A stretch of 64,000 nt of DNA from an uncultured bacterium (lineage in GTDB: Bacteria > Hinthialibacterota > Hinthialibacteria > Hinthialibacterales > Hinthialibacteraceae), in the NCBI GenBank assembly GCA_964419335.1, contig CAYQOX010000024.1, forward strand, positions 1,162-65,161, written 5' to 3'. This document shows, piece by piece, positions 21,213-39,885 of the stretch. A program made the position numbers and the translations under genes. The notes under the pieces were generated by a model. That model was given only the letters and a program-made list of their open reading frames with translations. It did no database searches and was not told the DNA's origin. The first letter of the stretch is position 1, and each line of letters begins with the position of its first letter.

Positions 21213-21282
21213 ACTAACACTATGTTTGGCTAGGGTTCCTCCCATCATCCCATTCACCCTAGCCATTTTTTTGGAGAATACT

Positions 21283-21849
21283 ATGAGTATCGCGATAACT
21301 GCACAACAACCAACTTTAGATTCCGATGTGGATCCTCGCTTTGGCCGCTGCGCCTACCTTCTCATCGTCAATCCTGATAACTTCGAATTCGATGTCATGG
21401 AAAATCCCAATCTCTCCGCTTCCAGCGGCGCCGGGATCCAAACCGCCTCCCTCCTTTCCGAAAAAGGAGTCGATACCGTCATTACCGGCAACTGCGGCCC
21501 CAACGCCCACCAAACCCTCTCCGCTGCTGGGATCAACGTCATTACCGGTGCCGGCGGCCCCATCCGCGCTGTGCTCGAACAGTATCAACTCAATCATTTT
21601 TCTTCCGCCCAGGGCCCCAACGTCGATTCCCATACCGGCATGGCCAATAACGTAAATCCTTCTCCCGACCCAAATTTAAGTACACCGAATACAGGTTTCC
21701 CCGCCTCGGGTATGGGCCGAGGGAAAGGCCAAGGTCGAGGTGCCGGGGGTGGAGGCGGACGCGGCCAAGGCGGCGGCCGTGGTCAGGGACGAGGTCGAGG
21801 CCAAGGCCAAGGCGGTGGTGCTGGCGGCGGCCGTGGACGCAATCGCTGA
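21283..21849 (+). CDS. NifX/NafY-like (PF02579-type) protein with long C-terminal RGG/GRG-repeat tail
   Basis: MSIAITAQQPTLDSDVDPRFGRCAYLLIV...GAGIQTASLLSEKGVDTVITGNCGP; tail GRGKGQGRGAGGGGGRGQGGGRGQGRGRGQGQGGGAGGGRGRNR; GGAGA RBS; ORF 21226 trimmed to ATG 21283. Confidence 0.65.
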   Translation: MSIAITAQQPTLDSDVDPRFGRCAYLLIVNPDNFEFDVMENPNLSASSGAGIQTASLLSEKGVDTVITGNCGPNAHQTLSAAGINVITGAGGPIRAVLEQYQLNHFSSAQGPNVDSHTGMANNVNPSPDPNLSTPNTGFPASGMGRGKGQGRGAGGGGGRGQGGGRGQGRGRGQGQGGGAGGGRGRNR

Positions 21850-21894
21850 TTAATGTATTCTTACTCACGGATCAACCCAAGGGACTTTCGATCG

Positions 21895-22761
21895 ATGAAA
21901 ATATCAATTGCTAGTGGAAAAGGTGGTACCGGCAAAACCACCATCGCGACCAATCTCGCCTTTGCTCTATCCCAACAAGGCCTTCCAACATCCTATGTGG
22001 ATTGCGACGTTGAAGAGCCCAACGGGCACCTCTTTCTCAATCCCACCCGTGAAAGTCGAGAAACCGTGGGCATCACCGTTCCCTCCGTTAATCAAGAACA
22101 GTGCACCTTATGCGGGCTCTGCGGCCACATTTGCGCCTACAGCGCCATCGTTTGCGTTGGACAACAAGTGCTTACTTTCCCTGAATTATGTCATTCGTGC
22201 GGCGGGTGTTGGTTGGTCTGCCCCCAAAAGGCAATCTCAGAATCTTTTCGTCCCATGGGGGTCATCGAATTTGGACACGCAGGCTCCCTTCAATTCACCC
22301 AAGGAGTCTTAAACATTGGTGAAGTCATGCCCACCCCTGTACTCCGTGAATTGAAGAAAAAAGCCCCTCTGACCGAGGTCTCCATCTTTGACGCTCCCCC
22401 CGGGACCTCATGCCCCGTCATTGAAACCATACTCGATTCTGATTATGTCCTCCTTGTCGCCGAACCCACCCCCTTCAGCTTCCACGATTTGAAACTGGCA
22501 ATCGAGATGGTTCGTGAAATAAAATTACCTTTTGGCGTGGTTCTCAACAAAGCCGATGTGGAATACAGCGACTTGCTTGATTATTGCAATCGCATGCAAA
22601 TTCCAATCTTAGCCCAAATTCCACACCAACGCCCTATTGCTGAAGCCTATTCCCGGGGTGAATTACTCTGTTCTATCTTCCCAGAATATACAAAACTGTT
22701 TTTGGATATTTATAAATCAATTGAAACTGAGGTCGGTCAAACAAAGGGTATGACAATATGA
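21895..22761 (+). CDS. MinD/Mrp-superfamily P-loop ATPase with inserted 4Fe-4S ferredoxin domain (COG1149-type)
   Basis: MKISIASGKGGTGKTT deviant Walker A; CTLCGLCGHICAY and CHSCGGCWLVCP cysteine clusters. Confidence 0.75.
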   Translation: MKISIASGKGGTGKTTIATNLAFALSQQGLPTSYVDCDVEEPNGHLFLNPTRESRETVGITVPSVNQEQCTLCGLCGHICAYSAIVCVGQQVLTFPELCHSCGGCWLVCPQKAISESFRPMGVIEFGHAGSLQFTQGVLNIGEVMPTPVLRELKKKAPLTEVSIFDAPPGTSCPVIETILDSDYVLLVAEPTPFSFHDLKLAIEMVREIKLPFGVVLNKADVEYSDLLDYCNRMQIPILAQIPHQRPIAEAYSRGELLCSIFPEYTKLFLDIYKSIETEVGQTKGMTI

Positions 22762-23654
22762 AAGAATTGGTTGTGATCAGTGGTAAAGGTGGAACCGGCA
22801 AAACTTCCATTGCCGCTTCTCTCGCTGCATTAGTACAAAAGGTCGTTATTGCGGATTGTGATGTGGATGCCGCCGATATGCATTTGCTCCTTTCACCACA
22901 AATTCAATTCAAACAAAACTTTTCTGGCGGCTCCATCGCTCGGATTTTACCTGGACATTGCACCGCGTGTGGCAAATGTGAAGAGATCTGCCGCTTCGAT
23001 GCCATTTACTACGACGGCCCAGGTAATGGCATGGTCGACAAAACCTTTCGAATCAATCCTGTCCAATGCGATGGGTGTGGTGTGTGTGCCTGGTTTTGTG
23101 CAGAACATGCCATTGAATTCAAACCAGCCATCAATGGTGAATGGTATCAATCAGAAACCCGCCTTGGATCCATGGTTCATGCCAAATTAGGTGTCGCCGA
23201 AGAAAACTCGGGAAAACTAGTCACCTTAGTTCGTAATGAAGCAAAAAAACTCGCCCAACAGCAGCAAAGCGATTGGCTTCTCATTGATGGTTCTCCCGGC
23301 ATTGGTTGCCCTGTCATCGCTTCCATCACCGATACCGATTTAGTTCTCATTGTCGCCGAGCCCACCCGCAGCGGGATCCATGATTTAGAGCGGGTCGCGA
23401 AACTTACCCATCAACTCAACCTCAAAACCTTTGTTTGCATAAACAAGTGGGATATCAATCCCGAGCTTTCCCAGCAAATCGAAGAAAAAGCCCAAAACGT
23501 ATATTTACATTTTGCCGGCCGCATTCGTTATGATCCTGCATTCGATGCCGCCCAAAGAGAGCAGAGAACCCTCATCGAATTCCAACACAATGGTTCAGCG
23601 GATGATATCAAAAAATTATGGACAAACATAATCAATCATAAGGAGAGCAGATAA
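22758..23654 (+). CDS. MinD/Mrp-superfamily P-loop ATPase with inserted 4Fe-4S ferredoxin domain (paralog)
   Basis: ISGKGGTGKTS; CTACGKCEEICRF and CDGCGVCAWFC clusters; ATGA start/stop overlap with upstream paralog. Confidence 0.75.
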   Translation: MKELVVISGKGGTGKTSIAASLAALVQKVVIADCDVDAADMHLLLSPQIQFKQNFSGGSIARILPGHCTACGKCEEICRFDAIYYDGPGNGMVDKTFRINPVQCDGCGVCAWFCAEHAIEFKPAINGEWYQSETRLGSMVHAKLGVAEENSGKLVTLVRNEAKKLAQQQQSDWLLIDGSPGIGCPVIASITDTDLVLIVAEPTRSGIHDLERVAKLTHQLNLKTFVCINKWDINPELSQQIEEKAQNVYLHFAGRIRYDPAFDAAQREQRTLIEFQHNGSADDIKKLWTNIINHKESR

Positions 23655-24207: not shown

Positions 24208-24849
24208 ATGCATAAAAAAACATTAAGGAAAAGATGGGGTGAGTTAGTCTTTCGACTGGCGGGGAAGAATCTTTCCAATGCTTCTCTCCGTCGTTCACGG
24301 GCTTTTTATAATTTAATTGGTCGTTTTTATGATTGGCTTTATACCAAGCCTATCCACGAGTACCAAAATGCGGCGAACCATCTCGTTGAAAAGTACATCC
24401 CCACAGGGGGAACCGTATTAGACCTAGGCTGCGGCACCGGGGTTTTAGCAAAACGCATCGCTCCACAAGCGGACAACATCCTTGGCTTGGATTTATCCAT
24501 TCGCATGCTCCAACAAGCGAAGAAGAAATTACGTGACCAATCTTCCGCCTTACTCATCAACGCCGATTGCCGTTACCTTCCCTTTCGACCGGGAATTTTT
24601 GATACAATCGTGACCAGCTTCATGTTGGTCATTCTCTCTTCTGAAGAGCGCATCGATGTGATTCAACAGGTGTCTCATTTATTACGTGATGAAGGCCGCG
24701 TCGTGTTTTTAACCTCGCGCGAAGATTTATCCGAGCAATGGTGGAGTCCGGCCATGTGGCGGCAGGCAGGCAATAAAACTGGCTTTACTCAACTTGAGAT
24801 TGAGGATTGTTTTGAATATTATCGAATTGTATGTATGAAAAAAACATGA
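24208..24849 (+). CDS. class I SAM-dependent methyltransferase
   Basis: VLDLGCGTGVLAKRIA motif I; Methyltransf_11-like. Confidence 0.7.
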   Translation: MHKKTLRKRWGELVFRLAGKNLSNASLRRSRAFYNLIGRFYDWLYTKPIHEYQNAANHLVEKYIPTGGTVLDLGCGTGVLAKRIAPQADNILGLDLSIRMLQQAKKKLRDQSSALLINADCRYLPFRPGIFDTIVTSFMLVILSSEERIDVIQQVSHLLRDEGRVVFLTSREDLSEQWWSPAMWRQAGNKTGFTQLEIEDCFEYYRIVCMKKT

Positions 24850-25126
24850 CCTTTGGATTTTTGATTTTATTTTTGAATCCAAAAATGTTCTTAAGCGGTA
24901 GATTGTATTGAAACTACCTTGTAGATTATACAAGAAATTATGTAATTATTTTCGGGTTGAGGATGTTGCCCTCACATCGGGAGAAACGTAAGAATGTAGA
25001 GTGCCGTAGGATGATTCCATGCGTTCCGGTATTCTCTCGGGTTAACAATCCCCTATTAGTAGACAAGGGGGTGGCATCTCCACGACTCCGGTTTCAATTT
25101 TCATTTCCTGAAGGTGAGGTTTATGA

Positions 25127-26377
25127 ATGATGAACTATCAATCTCTCTTTGTCTTTATTCTCTTTCCTTTATTGTTTACAGCCTGCACGACTCCGAATTT
25201 CATGGCGACTTCGTACGATGTTCCTGTCATGGATGGAGTCATGCACACCGTCCATGAAGGAGATACCATCGATGCGATCGCTGAAACCTATGATGTTACA
25301 TCACAGCGCATTCGTCGCGTGAATAATCTGCAAACCGATGTGAATCCCCAACCGGGGACTCGCTTGTTTATTCCGGGTGCCCAAGAATTACGGGTCGTCA
25401 ATGTGGACAAAGTAAAGAAGGAGAGACGAGATGGGTTATATCACTGGGTCGCCCCCGGGGAAACTCTCATTGCCATCGCCAATGCCTACAAGGAATATGG
25501 AGTGACCGTCGACGAATTGCAACGCGTTAACAACATCCCTGATGCGAAAAAACTCCGAGCCGGCCAAGAAATTTGGATCCCTCGGGGCATGGAAGTCAAG
25601 GATGTTGATATTCCTAAATTCACGGTGAAGACGGAAAGTCCTATTCCTGCCTATCAGGATGAAAAAAAGGAGCCCCGCGTCCAGCAACAAATTGTCTCTT
25701 ACGAGAAAGACAATCAAGAAGCAGATGAACAAGATCTCCCTGACGAAACTCAAACCGTTGTCCAAACCGAACAAGAGGATCAAGAAGAACAAAAGCAAGA
25801 AATCACGCAAATAGATCAAGTAGACCAAGAAGAACCTCAAGACCAAGAAGAAAAAACAACCCCGCAAGAACAAGTTTCAAAATCACAAGAATCCCAAACT
25901 CAACCTGAACCCGAAGGAGAAGAGGTGGAGTTTCCCCGCAAAATTGAACGTGTCGGGGAACTAAAATTCCAATGGCCCCTCAAAGATAATTTCCGCGTCC
26001 TCCGGTCTTTCAGCTCCTCAATGACCAACTATAACGCTGGCATCGATCTCGGCGCTGAAATCGGGACTCCCGTTTATGCCGCCGCCCATGGCGAAATCCA
26101 ACTGGTGGGTTCGGTCACCGACGAACTGGGCAGCAGCTACGGCAACCACATCATCTTGTACCATGGCACCCGCAATAACAAAGGCATGCGCACCTTTTAC
26201 GCTCATCTTAACGAAACCGCTGTTGAGGTGGGACAAGAAATCGAACGCGGTGAACTCATCGGCCGTATTGGCAATACCGGCCGTCCCTCGGTCAAAGAAA
26301 GCGGGGTTTTACATTTCGAAGTTCGTGAATTAGGCAATGCCATGGATCCCATGGATGTCTTACCCCCTCTGGATTAA
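25127..26377 (+). CDS. lipoprotein with two LysM domains, E/Q-rich linker and C-terminal M23 peptidase (NlpD-like)
   Basis: Lipobox LLFTAC; two LysM blocks (HTVHEGDTIDAIAETYDV..., HWVAPGETLIAIANAY...); M23 motifs (GIDLGAEIGTPVYAAAHG, HLNE...GQEIERGELIGRIGNTG, HFEV). Confidence 0.8.
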   Translation: MMNYQSLFVFILFPLLFTACTTPNFMATSYDVPVMDGVMHTVHEGDTIDAIAETYDVTSQRIRRVNNLQTDVNPQPGTRLFIPGAQELRVVNVDKVKKERRDGLYHWVAPGETLIAIANAYKEYGVTVDELQRVNNIPDAKKLRAGQEIWIPRGMEVKDVDIPKFTVKTESPIPAYQDEKKEPRVQQQIVSYEKDNQEADEQDLPDETQTVVQTEQEDQEEQKQEITQIDQVDQEEPQDQEEKTTPQEQVSKSQESQTQPEPEGEEVEFPRKIERVGELKFQWPLKDNFRVLRSFSSSMTNYNAGIDLGAEIGTPVYAAAHGEIQLVGSVTDELGSSYGNHIILYHGTRNNKGMRTFYAHLNETAVEVGQEIERGELIGRIGNTGRPSVKESGVLHFEVRELGNAMDPMDVLPPLD

Positions 26378-26445
26378 CTCGAGGCTCACTTTTTAGACTC
26401 TATTTTGATACTTTGATTAAAAAAACACTGTGAGGGTGACGTAGA

Positions 26446-26817
26446 ATGAACAAAAATAAAGAACGCCGAGTCTTCGAACGGGAAACGGTCCGTATTCCCT
26501 TTATTTACAGCTTGGATGAAGGTGAATCTTTCGACGAAGGAGAATGGAAAGAAGCCATGACCGAGGATATCGGTCCCGTCTTGGTCGGCGGCCTCGCTTT
26601 TTACACTGATGATGAACTCCAGGTCGATGACACCATCCGCATCGCCCTCTTTATGGATCTTGAACTCAAAGAAATGTGGTGCGACGAACCCGAAGCCTTC
26701 CCCGCCATCTATCACGGCAAGGTCCTGCGGATTACGAATGATGATCGCGGCCAACGGGTGGCGGTTGTTTTTCGAGGTTTCGAAAAACAGTATGGCGAAG
26801 CCCCAGAAGAAACTTAA
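26446..26817 (+). CDS. PilZ-domain protein (c-di-GMP receptor-like)
   Basis: N-terminal RRVFERETVR (RxxxR) and DIGPVLVGGLAF (DxSxxG-like) motifs. Confidence 0.55.
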   Translation: MNKNKERRVFERETVRIPFIYSLDEGESFDEGEWKEAMTEDIGPVLVGGLAFYTDDELQVDDTIRIALFMDLELKEMWCDEPEAFPAIYHGKVLRITNDDRGQRVAVVFRGFEKQYGEAPEET

Positions 26818-26825
26818 CTCAACTT

Positions 26826-28034
26826 CTAACTCCCGGGAAAATATTTCTTAGCGCATTCTTCACATATACTGTGGGTGAAATCGGCATCCGAATGATCTCG
26901 TATATATTCTTCCAACTGATTCCAATACCCCTTGTCGTCCCGTATTTTTTTACATGAGGAACAGATGGGTATCAAACCGCTAAGCCGCTTCACTTTCTCT
27001 AGCGCTTCTTGTAATTCTTGAATTAATTCTTTTTGTTCCCCTTCAATTCGCTTCCGTTCCTCCACCTCATGCCCCAACTTCTCATTCGCTTGGACTAAAT
27101 TCTCCGTACGCTTGGTAATCATCTCCTCTTGCTGATCCATTTGATTCCGCAAATTCAGCGACATTTGATTAAAAGCATTCGAAAGTTCTACCCATTCACG
27201 CCCCTGCCTCAAATCAATCGTTTCCCCGATTTTCCTTTGATCACTCGATATTTCCTGCGATTTTTTTCTCAACACCTTGAGGGGATAATAGATCAAATGC
27301 CGGCTAATTAAATATTGAGCACCAAACAGAATTAATAATATTCCCACCATATAAACGGTTAACCGCCACGTAAATGCCTCCACCTGGGCATAGGCTTGCT
27401 CCAACGGAATGCGTATCGATATGGCTGAGGCCACCTCTCCCACATCGCGATGAAAACTCCGCTCATCCCCATACCGCGCTACCAACTCCCGAGGCGCCGC
27501 CTCAGGTTCACTATGACACATCAAACAGGATTGTTCGAGAGTTTCCCCCCGCCGCATGACCACATATTGCAGCGCTCCATCGATCTTTCGCACCTCTGTC
27601 TTTTCCTCAAGATCAGGGGCGGATTGTAACTCCCTCAAAAATTGTTTTTCATAGATATCCGCTTCATTCTCCGGACTGCGGGCATTGATCGCACATTCTT
27701 TATAATAATATCCCTCTTCTGAATATTCTTTAAAATACTGATCCATCTTTCGAATCGCATAGGTGGATGACATCCATGTGGGATCAAAATATTCCTCATC
27801 CCGAAAGGATTCACTCCACTCCAGCACATTAGGCTTCAAGACTTCAGTAAAATATGTGTGAGTGGCCAAATTACGGTCTAACAAAAGCCTCGCCTTCTGC
27901 CGCGCATCTTCCAAAGCCTTGCTTTTCATTTCCTTGTCCAAAATATAAACCACCATCAAACCCAGGAATAACAAAACAAGGAATAATGCTATATTTTTTG
28001 TGAACAGAATACTAAAACTTTTCATTCGAAACAT
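26826..28034 (-). CDS. membrane sensor: periplasmic c-type heme-binding DUF3365-like domain (CxxCH) - TM - HAMP/coiled coil - C-terminal Cys4 module, no kinase/MCP/GGDEF output
   Basis: TM1 (ALFLVLLFLGLMVVYIL); CLMCHSEP...YGDERSFHRDVGEVASAISIRIP; TM2; coiled coil; C-terminus LIPICSSCKKIRDDKGYWNQLEEYIRDHSDADFTHSICEECAKKYF. Confidence 0.65.
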   Translation of the reverse strand: MFRMKSFSILFTKNIALFLVLLFLGLMVVYILDKEMKSKALEDARQKARLLLDRNLATHTYFTEVLKPNVLEWSESFRDEEYFDPTWMSSTYAIRKMDQYFKEYSEEGYYYKECAINARSPENEADIYEKQFLRELQSAPDLEEKTEVRKIDGALQYVVMRRGETLEQSCLMCHSEPEAAPRELVARYGDERSFHRDVGEVASAISIRIPLEQAYAQVEAFTWRLTVYMVGILLILFGAQYLISRHLIYYPLKVLRKKSQEISSDQRKIGETIDLRQGREWVELSNAFNQMSLNLRNQMDQQEEMITKRTENLVQANEKLGHEVEERKRIEGEQKELIQELQEALEKVKRLSGLIPICSSCKKIRDDKGYWNQLEEYIRDHSDADFTHSICEECAKKYFPGS

Positions 28035-28090
28035 TGAATTTTACCAACAAATTTTCATAAGGCTAAAAAGTCCTAAAGCAGGTGTTGTTA

Positions 28091-28112
28091 ACGTGAATAA
28101 CACCTTTTTTAT
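28091..28112 (+). terminator. hairpin aggtgtt-N12-aacacct followed by T6, directly abutting MITE copy 7 (overlaps its left TSD)
   Basis: Seen directly; no plus-strand gene immediately upstream. Confidence 0.3.
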
Positions 28113-30336: not shown

Positions 30337-30681
30337 GTGAAGATCTTGTCTGAACGTTTTCAATTTGATATGAATTCATCCTTATACGTTTCAGTCGCCG
30401 GTTCCTTAGATGCGACCTCCTCCGGCGATTTTGAAACGAACCTGATGGGAAAAATCGAAGAAAAAGAAAAACCCATGATTGTCTTAGACCTACAACAATT
30501 GGAGTTTATCAATAGTCTGGGATTAGCATCGATCGTCAAAGTCTGGAAAGAAGTTAGAGCCGATAATGGCTCCTTACGCATTCTCGTAACCGAAAAAATT
30601 GCTAAAATCTTTCAAGTCGCCAATCTTGATACGATTATCGATATGTATGTTTTACGGAGTTTACCCCAAAAATCCTCTTGA
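30337..30681 (+). CDS. STAS-domain protein (anti-sigma-factor antagonist SpoIIAA-like)
   Basis: SLYVSVAGSLDATSSGDFE...MIVLDLQQLEFINSLGLASIVKV...LRILV pattern; GTG start inferred. Confidence 0.6.
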   Translation: MKILSERFQFDMNSSLYVSVAGSLDATSSGDFETNLMGKIEEKEKPMIVLDLQQLEFINSLGLASIVKVWKEVRADNGSLRILVTEKIAKIFQVANLDTIIDMYVLRSLPQKSS

Positions 30682-32639
30682 CAATATATACAATGCTGCC
30701 TTCTGAACAATCCAAAACCCTTTCCTTGCCCGGCACCCAATTCTCCTTCATGGTGGTTTGGTGGCTGTGTTTTCTCCTCTACCCCAATTGGTATCTTCCC
30801 GGGTTAGAAAAATCGCGCCTTCTGGTATGCGCCGCTATCTTCGCCCTCTTTGTTTTTCAATGTTTTTTGTTCCGTTGGCTGGCCGATTATGCCCGCGATG
30901 AGCCTCCCCAGCAAGCGCAGCCTTTGCAAGACCGCTTCTTTTTCGCTACTCTGTTTTCCCTCAATTTCATCTTACATCTCCCGTTTCTCCCAAAACCCAT
31001 CCTCGCCGGCTTGGATACGATCGATCATGCTGCGGTTCCTGCTCTTGTGGCCAACTCGATCGTAACCTCACTCTCAGAGGCCGTCGGTTTTTCTCTCCGC
31101 CCTTTGTTCTTACTTCTTGCCATTGTTTTACTCTTTTTGGCTTTTTACCCCCCTTTCGTGCGCTCTCTCTGGCAGCGCCTGCGAACCCTCATAAACCTCG
31201 CGATCCAACATTGGCTTTATACTTTTCTGATTCTCTTTCTCTTCACCATGGGCTACGCTTTCTTATTAGTCTGGACAGCCTATCCCCAACAATTCGGCGA
31301 TCTATCCACCCTCTTTCGCTACCAACCGATCTCCAAGATGATTCTCATCCCGGTATATATCCTTTTTGGCCTAAGAGAATTCCTCGGCCGCTTTATCCAA
31401 TTAATGTTCTTTTACGCTGGAGCCGTCTATTTATATAAATTAACCGCCCTTTATGGCGGGAGAGAAGCCTCCCGCGTGGCATGCATCCTCTACTTATTTC
31501 TTCCCCCCATTTTTCACTATGGAAATACTCACATGATCGAGGGCGGAACCTTATTTTTTATCCTCGCTTCTTACTTTCATTATGTGCGCTACATGGAAAC
31601 CAAGCGCTATTCCGATTTAATTATCGGCACCCTATGGACCGTCATGGGATGTCTTTACAAACATCCTGCGGTTAGTCTCATCCCCGGTTTAGCCCTAATG
31701 ACCGCCTATGATTTCCTCTTCCCCCGCAAAGGGCAAGTGCGTCGTTTTCCTTTGCCTGAAATTCTTTCCTGCACGATTTCCAGTCTCACTTTCTTACTCT
31801 ATATGAAACTCTCCGCATACAATCAAGAAGTCCCCTCCAGCATGCATTTCCCCACCTTAGAACGCATGTTGACCAATCTCTCTGCCTTGACCCAGGGGGT
31901 AACCTGGCCTATCGCCTTGCTTTTCCTGGCCGGTTTGATCTTTCTACTCGCGCGAAACCATCGACGCATTTTTATACTGATTATGTGTTGGGTTGGCGCT
32001 CATTTTGTACTTACCGTTATGTCCGCCACCTTCGCCAATGTCCGCCAGGCGCTCCCCTATTACCTGGGCTTAATCGTCCCTGCCGCGCTCTTTTTGGAAT
32101 GGCTGGGAATTTTTTCTCTAGGATTACGCAAAGCCCTCATCTATGGGGTCTTACCCCTCTTTCTCTTATGGACATGCTTGTTCATGGATCGTGAGCAGCT
32201 GGATCCAAAAACCCAACGCGCCATGGGCGACCGCTCCTACATCACCTTCACCAACTGGGAAGAATCGTACCTTCCTTATGACGAAGCCATGCGCACGCTT
32301 AAAAACCTCGCCCAACCTGGGGATATTGTCTATGCTCCCATGGCCAACGAACCGGTGCATTTTTATTTACAAAAACATGATGTAAATCACATTCAATACA
32401 TCCGCCAAATCTGGGAACCTGACATCGAAAAACAATCGCTTGAATCTTTCCTGGAATACGTCGATACCCTCCAAGCAGATTGGGTTCTCATTCCCATGGG
32501 ACGCTGGCTGCTTAGCTATGTTGATCTTAATTTAATTCACGACCTGGAAGAAAGCCCCCCTGAAGGGTGGGAGGTTGCCCGCGAATTTACCTACGGCAAG
32601 GAACGAATGCGGCTGTGGCGAGTTAATCAGCCAAAGTAA
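30678..32639 (+). CDS. polytopic membrane protein, GT-C-superfamily glycosyltransferase-like (ArnT/PMT-like) with C-terminal soluble domain
   Basis: ~12 predicted hydrophobic segments over 500 aa followed by a ~150-aa hydrophilic C-domain; 4-nt overlap with STAS gene. Confidence 0.4.
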   Translation: MTIYTMLPSEQSKTLSLPGTQFSFMVVWWLCFLLYPNWYLPGLEKSRLLVCAAIFALFVFQCFLFRWLADYARDEPPQQAQPLQDRFFFATLFSLNFILHLPFLPKPILAGLDTIDHAAVPALVANSIVTSLSEAVGFSLRPLFLLLAIVLLFLAFYPPFVRSLWQRLRTLINLAIQHWLYTFLILFLFTMGYAFLLVWTAYPQQFGDLSTLFRYQPISKMILIPVYILFGLREFLGRFIQLMFFYAGAVYLYKLTALYGGREASRVACILYLFLPPIFHYGNTHMIEGGTLFFILASYFHYVRYMETKRYSDLIIGTLWTVMGCLYKHPAVSLIPGLALMTAYDFLFPRKGQVRRFPLPEILSCTISSLTFLLYMKLSAYNQEVPSSMHFPTLERMLTNLSALTQGVTWPIALLFLAGLIFLLARNHRRIFILIMCWVGAHFVLTVMSATFANVRQALPYYLGLIVPAALFLEWLGIFSLGLRKALIYGVLPLFLLWTCLFMDREQLDPKTQRAMGDRSYITFTNWEESYLPYDEAMRTLKNLAQPGDIVYAPMANEPVHFYLQKHDVNHIQYIRQIWEPDIEKQSLESFLEYVDTLQADWVLIPMGRWLLSYVDLNLIHDLEESPPEGWEVAREFTYGKERMRLWRVNQPK

Positions 32640-32764: not shown

Positions 32765-33544
32765 TTACTTTCCCTTTCGCACATGCATCCCCCCATGACG
32801 AAGTGGGGAAGGTTTCTCTTTCTCTCCCGCGCTCAGAGGAGGCATCTCCGCCGAGGAGATGGTCATCCGGGCATTCAGTTTCTCTTCTTCCTCACAGGTC
32901 TCACACATCGTCTTAGGAGCATCGATTTCATCTCCGCATTTCGAACAGAGAGATTTCCCCCGGTCGATTTTGATTTTCCCTTCGCGCTCTAATTCGTTAA
33001 TCATTTGATGAATCACCTTACGCGCATCTAATTCCGCGCTCGGAATAGAATAAAAATTCATAACCGTCTCGCGGGTTTCCTCATCAACCGGCTCTTTAAA
33101 GGTGCGCAAGAACTCATACATCTGATCGCGTACCATACTATAAATCTCATCATGCATGAGTTTTAACGGCGGGAAATCTTTATCCTTACGTAACTCTTTT
33201 ACCATGGTATACGCCACCAAATGCGCAAACCAAACGCCCTCCGTCTTGAGCAATTTATTGAATTTACGAATACGTTTCGCCAACGTAAACGGAAATTCAT
33301 CCAGGAGTTCGGATATCGCCACTTCCCGTGGTTTACGATACGCTTCTTTATCCGTTGCCGCGTTAGAAACATTCCCTTTCTTAATCAACATCTCTCGGCA
33401 GACATGATATACCGCATTATCCATATGGCTATAACACGATTTACAAAACCCATTATCGAGCATTTGCCCACAAAAGGGACACCCTTCCTCTTCCAAGGCA
33501 ATATCAAGGATTGACCAAAGATCGTTGGAATTCTTTTTAAGCAT
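32765..33544 (-). CDS. hypothetical protein with N- and C-terminal CxxC...CxxC zinc-ribbon motifs
   Basis: CPFCGQ...CKSCY at the N-terminus; CSKCGDE...CETCEEE at the C-terminus; no recognisable family. Confidence 0.5.
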   Translation of the reverse strand: MLKKNSNDLWSILDIALEEEGCPFCGQMLDNGFCKSCYSHMDNAVYHVCREMLIKKGNVSNAATDKEAYRKPREVAISELLDEFPFTLAKRIRKFNKLLKTEGVWFAHLVAYTMVKELRKDKDFPPLKLMHDEIYSMVRDQMYEFLRTFKEPVDEETRETVMNFYSIPSAELDARKVIHQMINELEREGKIKIDRGKSLCSKCGDEIDAPKTMCETCEEEEKLNARMTISSAEMPPLSAGEKEKPSPLRHGGMHVRKGK

Positions 33545-33889: not shown

Positions 33890-34888
33890 ATGAATACCAA
33901 GGTTTTACCCTACAATCGGTCCAGAGAACAGGAACACGAGATCGTCCTTTTCTATGTCGAGCGGATTCTCGACATATTTAATGAGGGGTGTGTTGCCCTC
34001 GCTCATAAAATCTATAACGAGTATAGGGATGAATGTAAAAGCATTCTTTCCAAAGAAAATGTGGCTTATTTAAAACAGAAAATGGAACAACCCGACGATT
34101 GGTCGGATGAAAAACAAAATACTTTTGTCGAACGGATCGAAAATGCCCGCTCCTTCGGCGAATATCAGTCCGTCCATGATATGTGTCATGAAATCCTTCT
34201 GCATCACAATCACCGGGCTGACCGTTGTCCCACGCATGAGATTTGCTACAAGATTCAAGATATCTTAGCAAGAAATAACATGCACTATCTTGAACCCAAT
34301 GAAGTGAATATCAACACGTTTTTGAACGCTTCTATCGAATTTGTGGTGGATCGCCGCCGTTCTAGCAGCCAGGATAATAAAACCCTGGAAGGCAATCCCG
34401 GGTTTTACCTATCCGATGCACTTGGCCAGCGCTATCGCTGCTTTGTGAAACAAGTTGGCCATGTGGAAGTCGGTACCGAGGTCAAAGTAAAAATCACCAA
34501 TATCCCAGGACCGGCTTTAAACAATGGGAAAAAGTGGGAACCCATTGTTTACGTGGAACCTCGGGTTTCTCCCGGTGACCTGATTGAAATCGAATTGAGC
34601 AGCCTCTCCCATACGGGCAATAGCTTCACCTTCAGGCACCATAGCTACGACGGCTTCCTCTGGTTCAAAAGGCGCGGGGTTAACAAAGAAATATTTAACC
34701 AAAATACGCTTCATCCCAAAGATCGCATCTTAGCCAAAGTTCTCTATACCACCGATGAGATGAAGCGGGGTAGCAGCGGCAAGGTCAACCGCTTGGGAAT
34801 TATTAAAGCTATTCCCATGAAACGCTTGGGCGAGGAACAAGCCCGTGAGGATGATCAAGATATGTCCGCTGCCAGATTTCTAGGCTAA
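33890..34888 (+). CDS. hypothetical protein (Cys/His-rich N-half, two beta-rich TRAM/S1-like segments in C-half)
   Basis: Open frame of 332 aa with GGAGGG RBS; no recognisable family. Confidence 0.45.
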   Translation: MNTKVLPYNRSREQEHEIVLFYVERILDIFNEGCVALAHKIYNEYRDECKSILSKENVAYLKQKMEQPDDWSDEKQNTFVERIENARSFGEYQSVHDMCHEILLHHNHRADRCPTHEICYKIQDILARNNMHYLEPNEVNINTFLNASIEFVVDRRRSSSQDNKTLEGNPGFYLSDALGQRYRCFVKQVGHVEVGTEVKVKITNIPGPALNNGKKWEPIVYVEPRVSPGDLIEIELSSLSHTGNSFTFRHHSYDGFLWFKRRGVNKEIFNQNTLHPKDRILAKVLYTTDEMKRGSSGKVNRLGIIKAIPMKRLGEEQAREDDQDMSAARFLG

Positions 34889-36816: not shown

Positions 36817-39800
36817 CTATTCAGTTTCAATTACGAATGCTTCCTTCTCATTTTTATGTTTTACATGAATCAATAAAGCCTTATGTTCAGAATCGTATTT
36901 CCACCCATAATCCTGTTCAAAGAGTGAATCTCGTTGCGGTAGGGATGGCTGATTGTTGAGCACACGTTTGGGCGCCTTTTCCATCGGCGCAATCAGAATT
37001 TCCGTAAGCCGGCCTTCTTTCGATTCTACCTTGAAAACAATCTCGCCATCTTTTGCCTTCACGTCATTGATATCTGCATTCGCGCTAATGCGGGTAGCCT
37101 CGGGGGTTCGCTCTTCGACAAACGCCGTGCGAATATTGAAACTGTTTCCCTTTAACGCATGCAGGTTGGTCATGATATTCTCAGGATTGATATACGCACC
37201 GTGCGCGGTGAGAAAGTAATCCCCATAACTATCAGGCAAAGTCCCCACATAGGGGCCTTCGGTCAATAGTTGATACAAGGCGCTGGTGGTAATCCCTTCT
37301 GCCAGTTTACGCCAGTCGTGGCTCTCGTCGAACACCGCGAGTTCCTGTAAAGCATACGCATAAACCAATCCGCACCATTGCACCGGTACCCCGCGCCACG
37401 TGTGGGTAAAGAAAGTCGCCCCAAAAATCGGAATCGTGGCATACATTTGCAAAGGACGCTCTTGGAGATACCACAGATAATGAAACCCAATCCCGGTGCG
37501 CGCCCAATAGCGGGCATAATCGAGGTAGGCCGGCTCCCCGGTAATGCGGTAAGCGTCCAGATTGGCACGCGCGGCCTGAGCGGATACCATAATATCCGCC
37601 GAAGCCAGAGGACACTCCCACCCCTGGGCCCCGCGCGGCACGCTTCTACGGTTAAGCGCTTCCAGGCTCTTTAAACCGGTTTGCGTAGCAACCGGATCGG
37701 CGGTGATGCGGGCCAGGCGCATAAGCCGCATGGCGGTGGGCGAGATGGTGCCCGACACCACCTCGCCTTCTTCGCCCAAGCCTTCTTGCTGTTCCCGATA
37801 GATATGGAATCCCCAGCTGCCATCTTCGTTTTGGTTTTGCTTATGGCGTTGGGCTTCTTCATGCCATGAGGATAGCCAAAAATCACTCACTCCCCAAAAA
37901 AACGCCGGTTCGAAGGTCATCACATGACATCCCGCGCTGTTGCCCAATCCTTTCGCCCCATAGCGATCAAGAATCGTCTCATACACGGTTTGGATTCGGT
38001 TATCCAGTTCCTCGTTGGGCGGAGTTACTGCTAAGAATTGATCCATTTTCAATAACGCCAACATTCCCCCGGATGGATACGGCGACCATCCCACACAGTG
38101 TCCCCAGCCTTTCTCTTCTTCATCCCAACAAGTGGTCATATAGGCTTCGCGGCTCATCTCAATCGATTCTCGGTAGGAGCGTGGCTCTGGCAAAGGGTCA
38201 GGAAGTGACCCTTCATGATAAAACGCATTCCAAGCATCCACCGCATCGTTGGGATCATTGCTTTCTGTTATGTAAATAAAACTTTCAAGCACCATCGCTT
38301 CGTCTTTCTCTAATGCGAAGGGCTTGTAAGCGATTTCCTGATTCTCCCGGACATAATCGGGCACGCTTGGAGCGAATAAGCCCAAGAGATGATTCTCCTG
38401 CTTTTCTAAACGATTAGGAACCGCGAATTTTGGCGAGGGATTATGATAACCTTCCGCCCAAGACGCATTGGGTGGCCACATCATCGAGATCAGCCGGTGA
38501 TCATAAGTCAGCGCCATAAGGGGAATCGTCACTTTATAGGGATGGGGCATATAGTGATCTCGTACTGGCGGATGGGCGGCTTCGGTGCTGGATGAAACCG
38601 CGGCTGTATCAAGATATTCCACCCCGGGAAAGATCGCCAAGTCCTTTTCACGTCCAAAACTTTTTTCCCCGATATAGAGCTCAGGTCCGGAAAAGTGCAA
38701 GACCTCCGCCGGGTGATCGCAGGCAATGGAGGAGTGGATACTCAAGGCCGACTTGGGGGAGTCGTGCCGCACCAGGTCTTGCGAAAAACTCCACGTTCGA
38801 CCATCGCGGTCCTCGATGCGTGAGCGGAGATGATAGGAGCCCTCGGTTTTCTTGTGCAGTTTTGGTGTAATGGGCAGCCATTGCTCGGTCCCATCTTCAC
38901 ACTGCACCACAAGTTTTCCCGCCCGGGGAATCCAAGCCAGATCGTTCCAATCATCCTCTTGTTTGATTTGCAGGCGAATGGGGCCAATTTCATCTTCGAT
39001 GGCATAGAATTGGGCTTGCCAGTCGCGGGCTTCCAGGGTGGCACGGGGTTTATCGAGTTTAGAAATTTGTACTAAGGTTGTGAGCCTTCTCTGCGTTGTT
39101 TCTGCTTTATCTTTTTTGGATTTTTCCTCCCATTCCAATTGCACCGGAAACAGGCCTTCTTCTCGCCCTGGAATCTCCCATCGCAGGGATTGTTCGCTTT
39201 CAGCCTCGAGCGTGATGGTTTTTAATGATTCCTCAACGGAGATTGAGGGAGAAAGAATCTTTAACTCAACGACCCCCTTTGCATCTCCCTGATTTCTAAC
39301 CGTAGCGTTTAATTTGACCGTTTCCCCGAGTGATACGAAAGGAGCCTGGGGATTAAACGGACCCACGTTTATATCCGCTCCTCCAAAGTTGAAAATATGG
39401 AAATGACGCAGGATTACCTCGCCCTGAGTATTCAATGGATCTAACCGCAAGCGCTTGATGGTGCCGTCCCAGCGCTCATGGCTTTTCAGGCGCAAAGTAT
39501 ACGTATGAAACTCTCCATCCACTTCGACCATGAAGCGCTTACTTTGATCTTCTGTGATAGCCGGTGATTGTTCGCTGCTCCAAAACAATTGCGCTTGAGA
39601 GCCTGCCGTGACTTTCATCTCCATTTGGATGACCGAGTATTGATTCGCGGAAAAATCCAGCGGGTTTGTGAGGATGTATGGATCCGATCCCGTACAAACG
39701 ATCTTGATTCCCTGATCGGTATCCGTCAGCGGTTTGACATCATGGGTGGGCTGCCAGTCCGCGGCTTGATTAAGGTTGGCCAATTCTTTTTGTTCAGGAT

Positions 39801-39885
39801 ACTCATCGCTCAAGGCGAAAAGACTTGCCGTATAGTGTAATGATAAAAGCAGAGGGATAAGCAAAAAGTATGAGCGTAACTTCAT
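36817..39885 (-). CDS. large secreted protein (1022 aa), function unknown (possibly polysaccharide-active alpha/alpha-barrel-like)
   Basis: Signal peptide MKLRSYFLLIPLLLSLHYTASLFA; no confident family. Confidence 0.5.
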   Translation of the reverse strand: MKLRSYFLLIPLLLSLHYTASLFALSDEYPEQKELANLNQAADWQPTHDVKPLTDTDQGIKIVCTGSDPYILTNPLDFSANQYSVIQMEMKVTAGSQAQLFWSSEQSPAITEDQSKRFMVEVDGEFHTYTLRLKSHERWDGTIKRLRLDPLNTQGEVILRHFHIFNFGGADINVGPFNPQAPFVSLGETVKLNATVRNQGDAKGVVELKILSPSISVEESLKTITLEAESEQSLRWEIPGREEGLFPVQLEWEEKSKKDKAETTQRRLTTLVQISKLDKPRATLEARDWQAQFYAIEDEIGPIRLQIKQEDDWNDLAWIPRAGKLVVQCEDGTEQWLPITPKLHKKTEGSYHLRSRIEDRDGRTWSFSQDLVRHDSPKSALSIHSSIACDHPAEVLHFSGPELYIGEKSFGREKDLAIFPGVEYLDTAAVSSSTEAAHPPVRDHYMPHPYKVTIPLMALTYDHRLISMMWPPNASWAEGYHNPSPKFAVPNRLEKQENHLLGLFAPSVPDYVRENQEIAYKPFALEKDEAMVLESFIYITESNDPNDAVDAWNAFYHEGSLPDPLPEPRSYRESIEMSREAYMTTCWDEEEKGWGHCVGWSPYPSGGMLALLKMDQFLAVTPPNEELDNRIQTVYETILDRYGAKGLGNSAGCHVMTFEPAFFWGVSDFWLSSWHEEAQRHKQNQNEDGSWGFHIYREQQEGLGEEGEVVSGTISPTAMRLMRLARITADPVATQTGLKSLEALNRRSVPRGAQGWECPLASADIMVSAQAARANLDAYRITGEPAYLDYARYWARTGIGFHYLWYLQERPLQMYATIPIFGATFFTHTWRGVPVQWCGLVYAYALQELAVFDESHDWRKLAEGITTSALYQLLTEGPYVGTLPDSYGDYFLTAHGAYINPENIMTNLHALKGNSFNIRTAFVEERTPEATRISANADINDVKAKDGEIVFKVESKEGRLTEILIAPMEKAPKRVLNNQPSLPQRDSLFEQDYGWKYDSEHKALLIHVKHKNEKEAFVIETE

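Follow-up and report, generated by a model that had tools for sequence, protein, structure and literature searches.

The closest described relatives of the receptor considered here belong to a sensor family that two preprints of 2026 (Crane and Zhulin groups) redefine from DUF3365/Tll0287 to sCache_heme, a Cache fold with a cytochrome-derived CxxCH insertion (10.64898/2026.02.01.703092; 10.64898/2026.05.25.727664); within this family, the CxxCH motif is given as 99% conserved (10.64898/2026.02.01.703092). The stand-alone members Tll0287 and a P. putida protein resemble redox proteins in their behaviour, and their heme ligation is His/Cys; the signalling-fused sCache_heme of P. azotoformans binds nitric oxide (NO) tightly, with an off-rate like that of H-NOX/NosP and without a stable O2 complex (10.64898/2026.02.01.703092). 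In the CHH receptor of P. azotoformans, HAMP is the only cytoplasmic part, and an operon-encoded Ser/Thr kinase docks on HAMP and phosphorylates the receptor (10.64898/2026.05.25.727664). Here, we describe a 402-amino-acid (aa) receptor with such a sensor domain, whose cytoplasmic part continues beyond HAMP into a coiled coil and a 44-residue module with four cysteines, the Cys4 tail. Its gene lies at positions 26826..28034 on the minus strand of the window, i.e., of the whole 64,000-nucleotide stretch of contig CAYQOX010000024.1 (assembly GCA_964419335.1; an uncultured bacterium of the Hinthialibacteraceae) that was analysed. A preceding interpretation of the letters and open reading frames (ORFs), made without database searches and referred to as the sequence-only reading, had treated the protein as an oddity, whereas the data below make it one member of a very large class. 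Nor is its sensor domain uncharacterised any longer, given the definition of sCache_heme as a domain that binds NO when fused to signalling modules (10.64898/2026.02.01.703092).

The Cys4 tail occupies a regulated output slot

According to the ORF list and the analyses given below, the chain is laid out as Cache_heme-TM-HAMP-coiled-coil-Cys4 (TM, transmembrane segment), and its 402-aa translation agrees in full with the one quoted in the sequence-only reading. The parsing into a heme-c DUF3365 sensor, TM, HAMP/coiled coil and Cys4 tail that had been proposed in the sequence-only reading was borne out by the PF11845 match of the sensor (E = 8.2e-37), the CLMCH motif, the HAMP matches and the tail profile. 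An AlphaFold2 (AF2) model of the full-length protein, with 37 relatives as input, reached a mean predicted local distance difference test score (pLDDT) of 83.5 and revealed, in this order, TM1, a Cache-like domain, TM2 running into HAMP AS1, a connector, a long helix (279-345) and a small terminal domain. The absence of a conventional output was likewise upheld: at E ≤ 1, neither Pfam nor NCBIfam gave a kinase, methyl-accepting chemotaxis protein (MCP), GGDEF/EAL or PP2C domain, nor a HisKA/DHp phospho-acceptor or HATPase_c. NCBI contains a protein 100% identical to the receptor, more than 4,364 homologues were found, and more than 4,300 proteins of ~400 aa have all parts of this layout, with identities of 45-57%. 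The gene, neither truncated nor unique, is a typical representative of a large family.

The tail, a predicted metal-binding output domain delimited by profile and AF2, comprises aa 352-399 (SGLIPIC358SSC361KKIRDDKGYW...H381S...F-T-H388-S-I-C391EEC394AKKYF; 26838..26981, minus strand), and the CxxC-x29-CxxC motif of its 44-aa module is encoded at 26853-26963 on the same strand. A search with the last 60 residues retrieved hundreds of fragments of 65-80% identity, and their alignment follows an almost invariant pattern, L-x-G-x-x-P-I-C-x-x-C-K-K-I-R-D-D-x-G-Y-W ... Y ... H-S ... F-x-H-x-x-C-x-x-C. When a profile of the tail was searched against the 1.84 billion representatives of a library clustered at 50% identity, it matched 23,977 clusters at E ≤ 1e-3, 19,769 at E ≤ 1e-10 and 5,140 at E ≤ 1e-30; the first two of these counts place the tail far beyond chance. 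The spacer between the CxxC pairs was exactly 29 residues long, without any insertion or deletion, in 421/421 retrieved instances, among which the proline, the tryptophan and the four cysteines were invariant, the non-ligand residues K, R, D, G, W, E, Y and H were 93-100% conserved, and the positions of H381 and H388 kept histidine in 87% and 93%, respectively. The net charge of the 44-aa module averaged -0.5 (standard deviation 1.6), and 111 representatives from the clustered library had a mean pairwise tail identity of 0.83. In nearly all single-copy representatives, the first CxxC was found 45-60 residues before the stop codon; the tail is a natural chain end and not a frameshifted fragment of a longer domain, a caveat that the sequence-only reading had itself raised.

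Modelled in isolation, the tail (pLDDT 87.4) was predicted to fold as a central helix with two strand-CxxC-helix units around it, in which each CxxC lies where the strand passes into the helix, and an internal pseudo-repeat, [P/G]-I-C-x-x-C-[K/A]-K, agrees with this two-unit model. The four invariant Cys most likely bind one Zn(II). The profile search of the C-terminal module that had been proposed earlier gave no significant Pfam match, zf-C4pol (E = 0.11) and Mut7-C (E = 0.28) being the best; NCBIfam and PADLOC yielded no relevant match, and the Protein Data Bank (PDB) nothing significant, either by sequence or by Foldseek. The source pipelines annotate tail-bearing proteins merely as 'response regulator', 'PAS domain S-box protein' or 'DUF3365 domain-containing protein'. 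As far as profile libraries and the literature show, the tail is an undescribed and unnamed domain, and the earlier statement that the output mechanism of such sensors is undescribed holds, with the tail matched by no profile library, solved structure or paper.

Concerning the coupling of the tail to the sensor, the signalling coiled coil (aa ~298-351; 26982..27143, minus strand), delimited by AF2 and the heptad pattern, is continuous with HAMP AS2 and ends at the conserved L-x-G junction. The long helix of the AF2 model is one uninterrupted helix, and the hydrophobic a/d heptad pattern is unbroken over residues 292-355 of the window protein. From the HAMP AS2 motif to P-I-C, a spacing of 40, 47, 54, 61 or 68 residues was found in 109/109 directly coupled relatives; from the PAS motif D-I-T, it was 33 residues in 77 of 78 proteins and 26 in the other one; and from the REC motif D-Y-x-x-K-P, it was 43 or 50 residues (7/7). 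The distance between input and tail varies by whole heptads only, which is strong evidence that the tail is a regulated element and not an appendage. Such strict conservation of phase is typical of signalling helices that drive dimeric transmitters.

Natural domain-swap controls for this slot are provided by relatives that lack the tail. Among 80 reference-genome loci of sensor relatives, the tail was present in 65 and absent from 15 (L063, L066-L071, L073-L077 and L079-L081). Ten of these 15 were scanned, revealing the Tll0287-HAMP input to be combined with HisKA or HisKA_2 plus HATPase_c in eight, with GGDEF in one and with PAS only in one; the input of the tail-less relatives is 43-50% identical, and some of the kinases are hybrids with REC. 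With the heptad phase-lock of the tail, this is direct evidence that a Cys4 module stands here instead of a transmitter, as had been read from the sequence, and the arrangement is far more widespread than was then assumed. The tail occupies a regulated output slot, equivalent to that of kinase and GGDEF outputs. Orthologues of exactly this architecture are carried by cultured Geomonas and Citrifermentans (L040, L045, L050, L055, L059 and L060).

The domains that co-occur with the module, a survey of which had also been proposed, were determined with Pfam in the 114 top-scoring single-copy tail-bearing representatives. Upstream of the tail, 33 families were matched, with PAS in 83 representatives, REC in 8, HAMP in 8, GAF in 5 and Tll0287-like in 4, besides PocR, dCache, 4HB_MCP and MASE6. 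Essentially every one of the 25 most frequent families is a sensor or input module, and no kinase, cyclase or MCP output domain was among them. The tail takes the place of the output in more than 20,000 families of bacterial signalling proteins. A large share of sensors without apparent output (~24,000 clusters at 50% identity) end in this same 44-residue four-Cys domain.

Departures from the single C-terminal copy were also encountered. A recurrent class of about 520 aa (~410-555 aa; P0241-P0275, e.g., P0251, P0258 and P0269) consists of two tandem sensor-coiled coil-Cys4 units with REC, MASE6, PocR or PAS sensors, and two-copy proteins add Reg_prop/Y_Y_Y; the tail can therefore be internal, and a free C-terminus is not required. 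Tiny stand-alone ORFs of coiled coil plus Cys4 (68-103 aa; L082 6001-6312 and L083 5642-6207) were located near resolvase, transposase or integrase genes, one of them overlapping by 4 bp a preceding ORF of 120 aa; they resemble sensor genes that were split or left as remnants, and do not look like a class of their own. Plasmids contributed one weak match to the tail and phages none.

Membrane topology and the heme sensor

TM1, or signal anchor (aa ~15-33, IALFLVLLFLGLMVVYIL; 27936..27992, minus strand), and TM2 (aa ~223-243, RLTVYMVGILLILFGAQYLIS; 27306..27368, minus strand) were located by sequence reading. In the AF2 model, helix 9-74 extends from the membrane through to the first Cache helix, and helix 212-264 carries TM2 unbroken into HAMP AS1. 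The heme domain sits between these two hydrophobic helices and is therefore periplasmic; Ccm-dependent attachment of heme requires such an extracytoplasmic location. HAMP (aa ~244-297; 27144..27305, minus strand) consists of AS1, a connector (265-278) and AS2 with an AFNxMS motif; it was delimited through partial NCBIfam matches to the HAMP segments of NarQ, SiaA and EnvZ, with that of WalK also aligning, and through a PDB profile search, in which the region matched Tsr and NarQ structures, the Tsr match being confined to the HAMP/helix region. Many homologues of the sensor pass the Pfam HAMP model.

The sCache_heme (Tll0287-like/DUF3365) sensor covers aa 38-210 (27405..27923, minus strand), where PF11845 (Tll0287-like, formerly DUF3365) scored 127.3 bits against a cut-off of 24.1 and was aligned over profile positions 2-144 of 144. 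A Foldseek search with the full-length AF2 model returned Tll0287 (5B82) as the best PDB match (E = 2.2e-7, TM-score (target) 0.63), followed by the Geobacter heme-c sensor GSU0935 (3B42). The c-type heme attachment motif, C170-L-M-C173-H174 (27513..27527, minus strand), is evident from sequence reading and from the family alignment: in 37 family members, both Cys of CxxCH are invariant and the His is conserved to at least 90%, and the YG...SISIRIP signature that comes after CLMCH is invariant or nearly so across the 37 aligned relatives. For the CxxCH segment (aa ~147-184; window 27513-27600, minus strand; ALQYVVMRRGETLEQSCLMCHS), the closest sequence in the PDB is Desulfovibrio cytochrome c3 (SLYYVVHARGELKHTSCLACHS; E = 0.012), a similarity that agrees, independently, with the preprint model of a cytochrome-derived insertion.

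In an approximate alignment, the region near the distal ligand Cys68 of Tll0287 corresponds here to an invariant WMSST motif that is free of Cys. Because of this motif, and given the placement of Cys68 by that alignment, we infer that the sensor would lack the redox-type His/Cys ligation. Its ligand is probably NO, as predicted by analogy with one characterised signalling-type member.

Gene neighbourhood and partner search

The sensor gene is apparently monocistronic; the upstream gene on the same strand is 432 bp away, and 8 bp separate the stop codon of the sensor gene from that of the convergent gene on its other side. Only one tail is encoded within the 64-kb window. A palindrome at 28080-28105, with a 10-bp stem followed by a T-run, is found in the 432-bp gap between the glycosidase and sensor genes and could be a terminator or an operator site.

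The convergent gene (26446..26817, plus strand) encodes 123 aa and had been called a PilZ-domain protein. Its convergent position was confirmed, and its own score against Pfam PilZ (PF07238) was 19.0 bits, below the cut-off of 22.5. It contains the RxxxR motif as RVFER, and the second motif, (D/N)xSxxG, is degenerate. The ORF is a real gene; its 41 homologues occur in metagenome-assembled genomes of Omnitrophota and Ca. Hinthialibacter, five of the 41 having a precomputed PF07238 hit and two being named PilZ. Since the RxxxR motif is present and several homologues pass PF07238 or carry the PilZ name, the label 'PilZ-like' is fair. By synteny, the gene is the last of a co-directional methyltransferase-LysM/M23-PilZ trio (24208-26817, plus strand). 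In three related genomes of Omnitrophota/Ca. Hinthialibacter (five loci), the PilZ-like gene keeps its LysM/M23 neighbour throughout and the methyltransferase in two genomes; the gene convergent to it differs each time, being an unrelated 318-aa protein in the closest relative, FlgE, or unknowns beside a secretin. The trio suggests cyclic di-GMP-linked control of a cell-wall hydrolase, and it also gives a hint of the lineage to which the window belongs.

On the other side of the sensor gene, beyond an intervening glycosidase gene, a STAS gene (114 aa) and a gene for a PMT_2-like membrane protein (653 aa; multi-pass glycosyltransferase type) are located at 30337-32639 on the plus strand, with a 4-bp overlap at the PMT_2 start. 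Because of this overlap, the STAS gene probably belongs with the PMT_2-like gene, a pairing that is unusual for a domain of the anti-sigma-antagonist type.

A functional link of the sensor to the PilZ neighbour or to the STAS protein at 30337, as entertained in the sequence-only reading, did not hold. When the PilZ-like, LysM/M23, methyltransferase, glycosidase, STAS and PMT_2-like proteins of the window were compared by tblastn with 80 orthologous sensor loci, each gave zero hits. PilZ was rejected as a partner, with 0/80 orthologous loci and a synteny that retains the LysM/M23 genes but not the sensor, and so was STAS (0/80). The PilZ-like gene is outside the sensor system, and its adjacency is incidental. 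De novo clustering of neighbours at the 80 orthologous loci yielded only one heterogeneous cluster of kinase, receiver, GGDEF, HD-GYP and sigma-54 activator genes (38/80), and the same generic cluster was obtained at 80 diverse tail-bearing metagenome loci (23/80). Beyond these generic kinase/receiver-type genes, no conserved operon partner was found at the 80 + 80 loci. No Ser/Thr kinase or PP2C gene was recognised in the neighbour clusters that recur at the 80 orthologous loci, or in the Pfam-scanned part of the window (17.6-39.9 kb), the neighbours there being the glycosidase, STAS, PMT_2, LysM/M23, PilZ-like and methyltransferase genes.

Further genes of the window include, at 21226-23654 on the plus strand, a NifX-like (Nitro_FeMo-Co) gene and, after it, two P-loop genes of the MinD/ParA type into which 4Fe-4S ferredoxin motifs are inserted. 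Three ORFs were without a Pfam match at E ≤ 1e-5, namely 36817-39885 (minus strand, 1022 aa), 32765-33544 (minus strand, 259 aa) and 33890-34888 (plus strand, 332 aa).

Proposed mechanism, alternatives and comparison with known systems

We lean towards a mechanism in which a dimeric Zn(Cys)4 module, under the control of a heme receptor that is probably for NO, binds a shared target whose gene lies elsewhere. The protein is a two-pass inner-membrane receptor whose periplasmic heme-c Cache domain would respond to a diatomic gas or a redox cue, NO being the likeliest. The resulting conformational change would pass from TM2 through HAMP into the continuous, heptad-phased dimeric coiled coil, which ends directly in the 44-residue CxxC-x29-CxxC tail, the proposed output module. 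Movement of the coil would reposition the two tail domains of the dimer relative to each other, or change how far they are exposed, and thereby switch binding to a cytoplasmic target. This target would be a shared, conserved cellular component encoded elsewhere, since a near-invariant tail follows PAS, REC, GAF, HAMP and other inputs and is without a conserved operon partner; it would more likely be a protein than a nucleic acid, because the non-ligand surface residues are near-invariant, an operon partner is missing and the module is not basic. Between metal-dependent oligomerisation and partner binding, which the sequence-only reading had both put forward, we favour partner binding.

More tentatively, the tail may represent an undescribed major class of output domain, comparable with kinase, GGDEF or MCP-tip outputs, through which thousands of PAS, REC, GAF, HAMP and Cache sensors, the present probable NO receptor among them, would converge on one conserved cytoplasmic hub. 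If true, Desulfobacterota, Nitrospirota, Spirochaetota, Bdellovibrionota and related phyla would share a signalling pathway of a new kind. Naming the binding target of the tail would explain how an entire class of 'orphan' sensors works, and would tie the newly described periplasmic heme-c sensors of NO to what follows in the cytoplasm of environmentally important anaerobes.

Several points weigh against the proposed mechanism. In it, we infer which metal is bound, how the dimer is arranged, that NO is the ligand and what kind of target is engaged, and the assignment of NO depends by analogy on a single characterised homologue, from Pseudomonas, whose cytoplasmic end is different. For the tail, the full-length AF2 model gives a pLDDT of only 57-71 and a secondary structure other than that of the isolated-tail model. 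The figures for tail conservation derive from top-scoring hits and hence are biased towards the consensus. A full-text search of the literature found no description of the tail, though a paper in a subscription journal could have escaped it.

A reading that deserves weight, unlikely as we consider it, is that the tail is a purely structural cap, a zinc 'staple' that keeps the coil end stable or dimeric, with the output provided by a trans-acting enzyme on the HAMP/coil surface as in the CHH-kinase system. There, a Cache_heme-HAMP receptor without an output domain of its own relies for signalling on a Ser/Thr kinase bound to HAMP (10.64898/2026.05.25.727664). The enrichment of kinase, receiver, GGDEF and HD-GYP genes beside orthologues (38/80 loci) would suit such a staple, as would the often structural role of small Cys4 domains. 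However, neither the recurrent clusters nor the scanned part of the window contain a recognised Ser/Thr kinase or PP2C gene, and a staple would not need a 93-100% conserved surface of K, R, D, G, Y, W, E and H with zero indels in 421 copies; moreover, the tail is also found behind PAS and REC inputs without HAMP, and it replaces a kinase or GGDEF in close relatives. The conserved K-K-I-R stretch and the G-Y-W aromatics could instead contact nucleic acid, and Cys4 fingers commonly bind DNA or RNA; the proteins would then be one-component transcription or RNA regulators, in part tethered to the membrane, as is known for the membrane-anchored DNA-binding regulators ToxR and CadC. We regard this as improbable, since the module is not basic (mean net charge as given above), no similarity to DNA-binding families was detected in Pfam, NCBIfam or the PDB, and a near-identical surface across ~24,000 families would mean one specificity for all paralogues, unlike in known one-component regulators.

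Slightly less probable again is a role of the tail as a second sensor, in which an Fe(Cys)4, Fe-S or zinc-thiolate site, labile to redox change or to oxygen, would act as a switch reporting the cytoplasmic redox or metal status. Four invariant Cys with two nearly invariant His (H381 and H388), pseudo-symmetric I-C-x-x-C-x-K knuckles, the second of which has the consensus C-P-x-C as in rubredoxins, and largely anaerobic or microaerophilic hosts (Desulfobacterota, Nitrospirota, Geobacterales and Spirochaetes) speak for it. Yet it would leave the proteins without any output, the position of the tail is interchangeable with kinase and GGDEF transmitters, and the heptad phase-lock to upstream inputs is the signature of a regulated downstream module. 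We give practically no credence to the gene being a truncated or frameshifted sensor-kinase remnant with the Cys4 stretch as a fragment of a larger domain, even though the same input exists in full histidine kinases and a few tiny coil-plus-tail ORFs beside transposases resemble remnants. This explanation was rejected on the grounds of the natural C-terminus of the single-copy representatives and of the more than 4,300 proteins of the same architecture; furthermore, the ORF is not continued in any downstream frame, the convergent stop codon being only 8 bp away.

At the level of the motif, the tail resembles small Cys4 protein-binding zinc domains such as the N-terminal zinc-binding domain of ClpX and the C4 fingers of DksA/TraR, which are likewise small and have two CxxC knuckles, the second CxxC lying at the start of a helix; this likeness is confined to the motif and serves as a lead, not for classifying the tail. 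Papillomavirus E6/E7 and the type II secretion ATPase EpsE contain zinc motifs with a spacer of identical length, 29 residues; they were the only literature matches for that spacing, and the agreement is probably a coincidence. No match of the tail in sequence or fold to ClpX, DksA/TraR, E6/E7 or EpsE was obtained.

The P. azotoformans CHH receptor and the window protein have in common a periplasmic Cache fold with the covalent-type heme c motif CxxCH, two TM segments, a cytoplasmic HAMP and the lack of an enzymatic output in the same polypeptide. Whereas CHH stops at HAMP, the window protein adds a coiled coil of ~55 residues (aa 298-351) and the Cys4 domain (aa 352-399), and whereas the CHH kinase is encoded in the operon, a PknB-like kinase or PP2C was not found beside the window sensor or its 80 orthologues. 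Zinc, a cysteine-rich region or a coiled coil are not mentioned in either of the two sCache_heme/CHH preprints.

Tll0287 (5B82) is the best structural match of the sensor half and has the same heme attachment motif, but it consists of one soluble domain, its axial ligands are His/Cys, and a redox role has been proposed for it; in contrast, the window protein has the Cys-free WMSST near the Cys68 position and is wired into a transmembrane chain. The Cache_heme-HAMP histidine kinases and diguanylate cyclases, finally, are 43-50% identical in input and HAMP and have the same coiled-coil exit. Where these carry HisKA/HATPase_c or GGDEF, the window protein has a predicted metal-binding domain of 44 aa without a recognisable catalytic fold, and the coupling logic, a heptad-phased helix leading into a dimeric output, looks the same in both.

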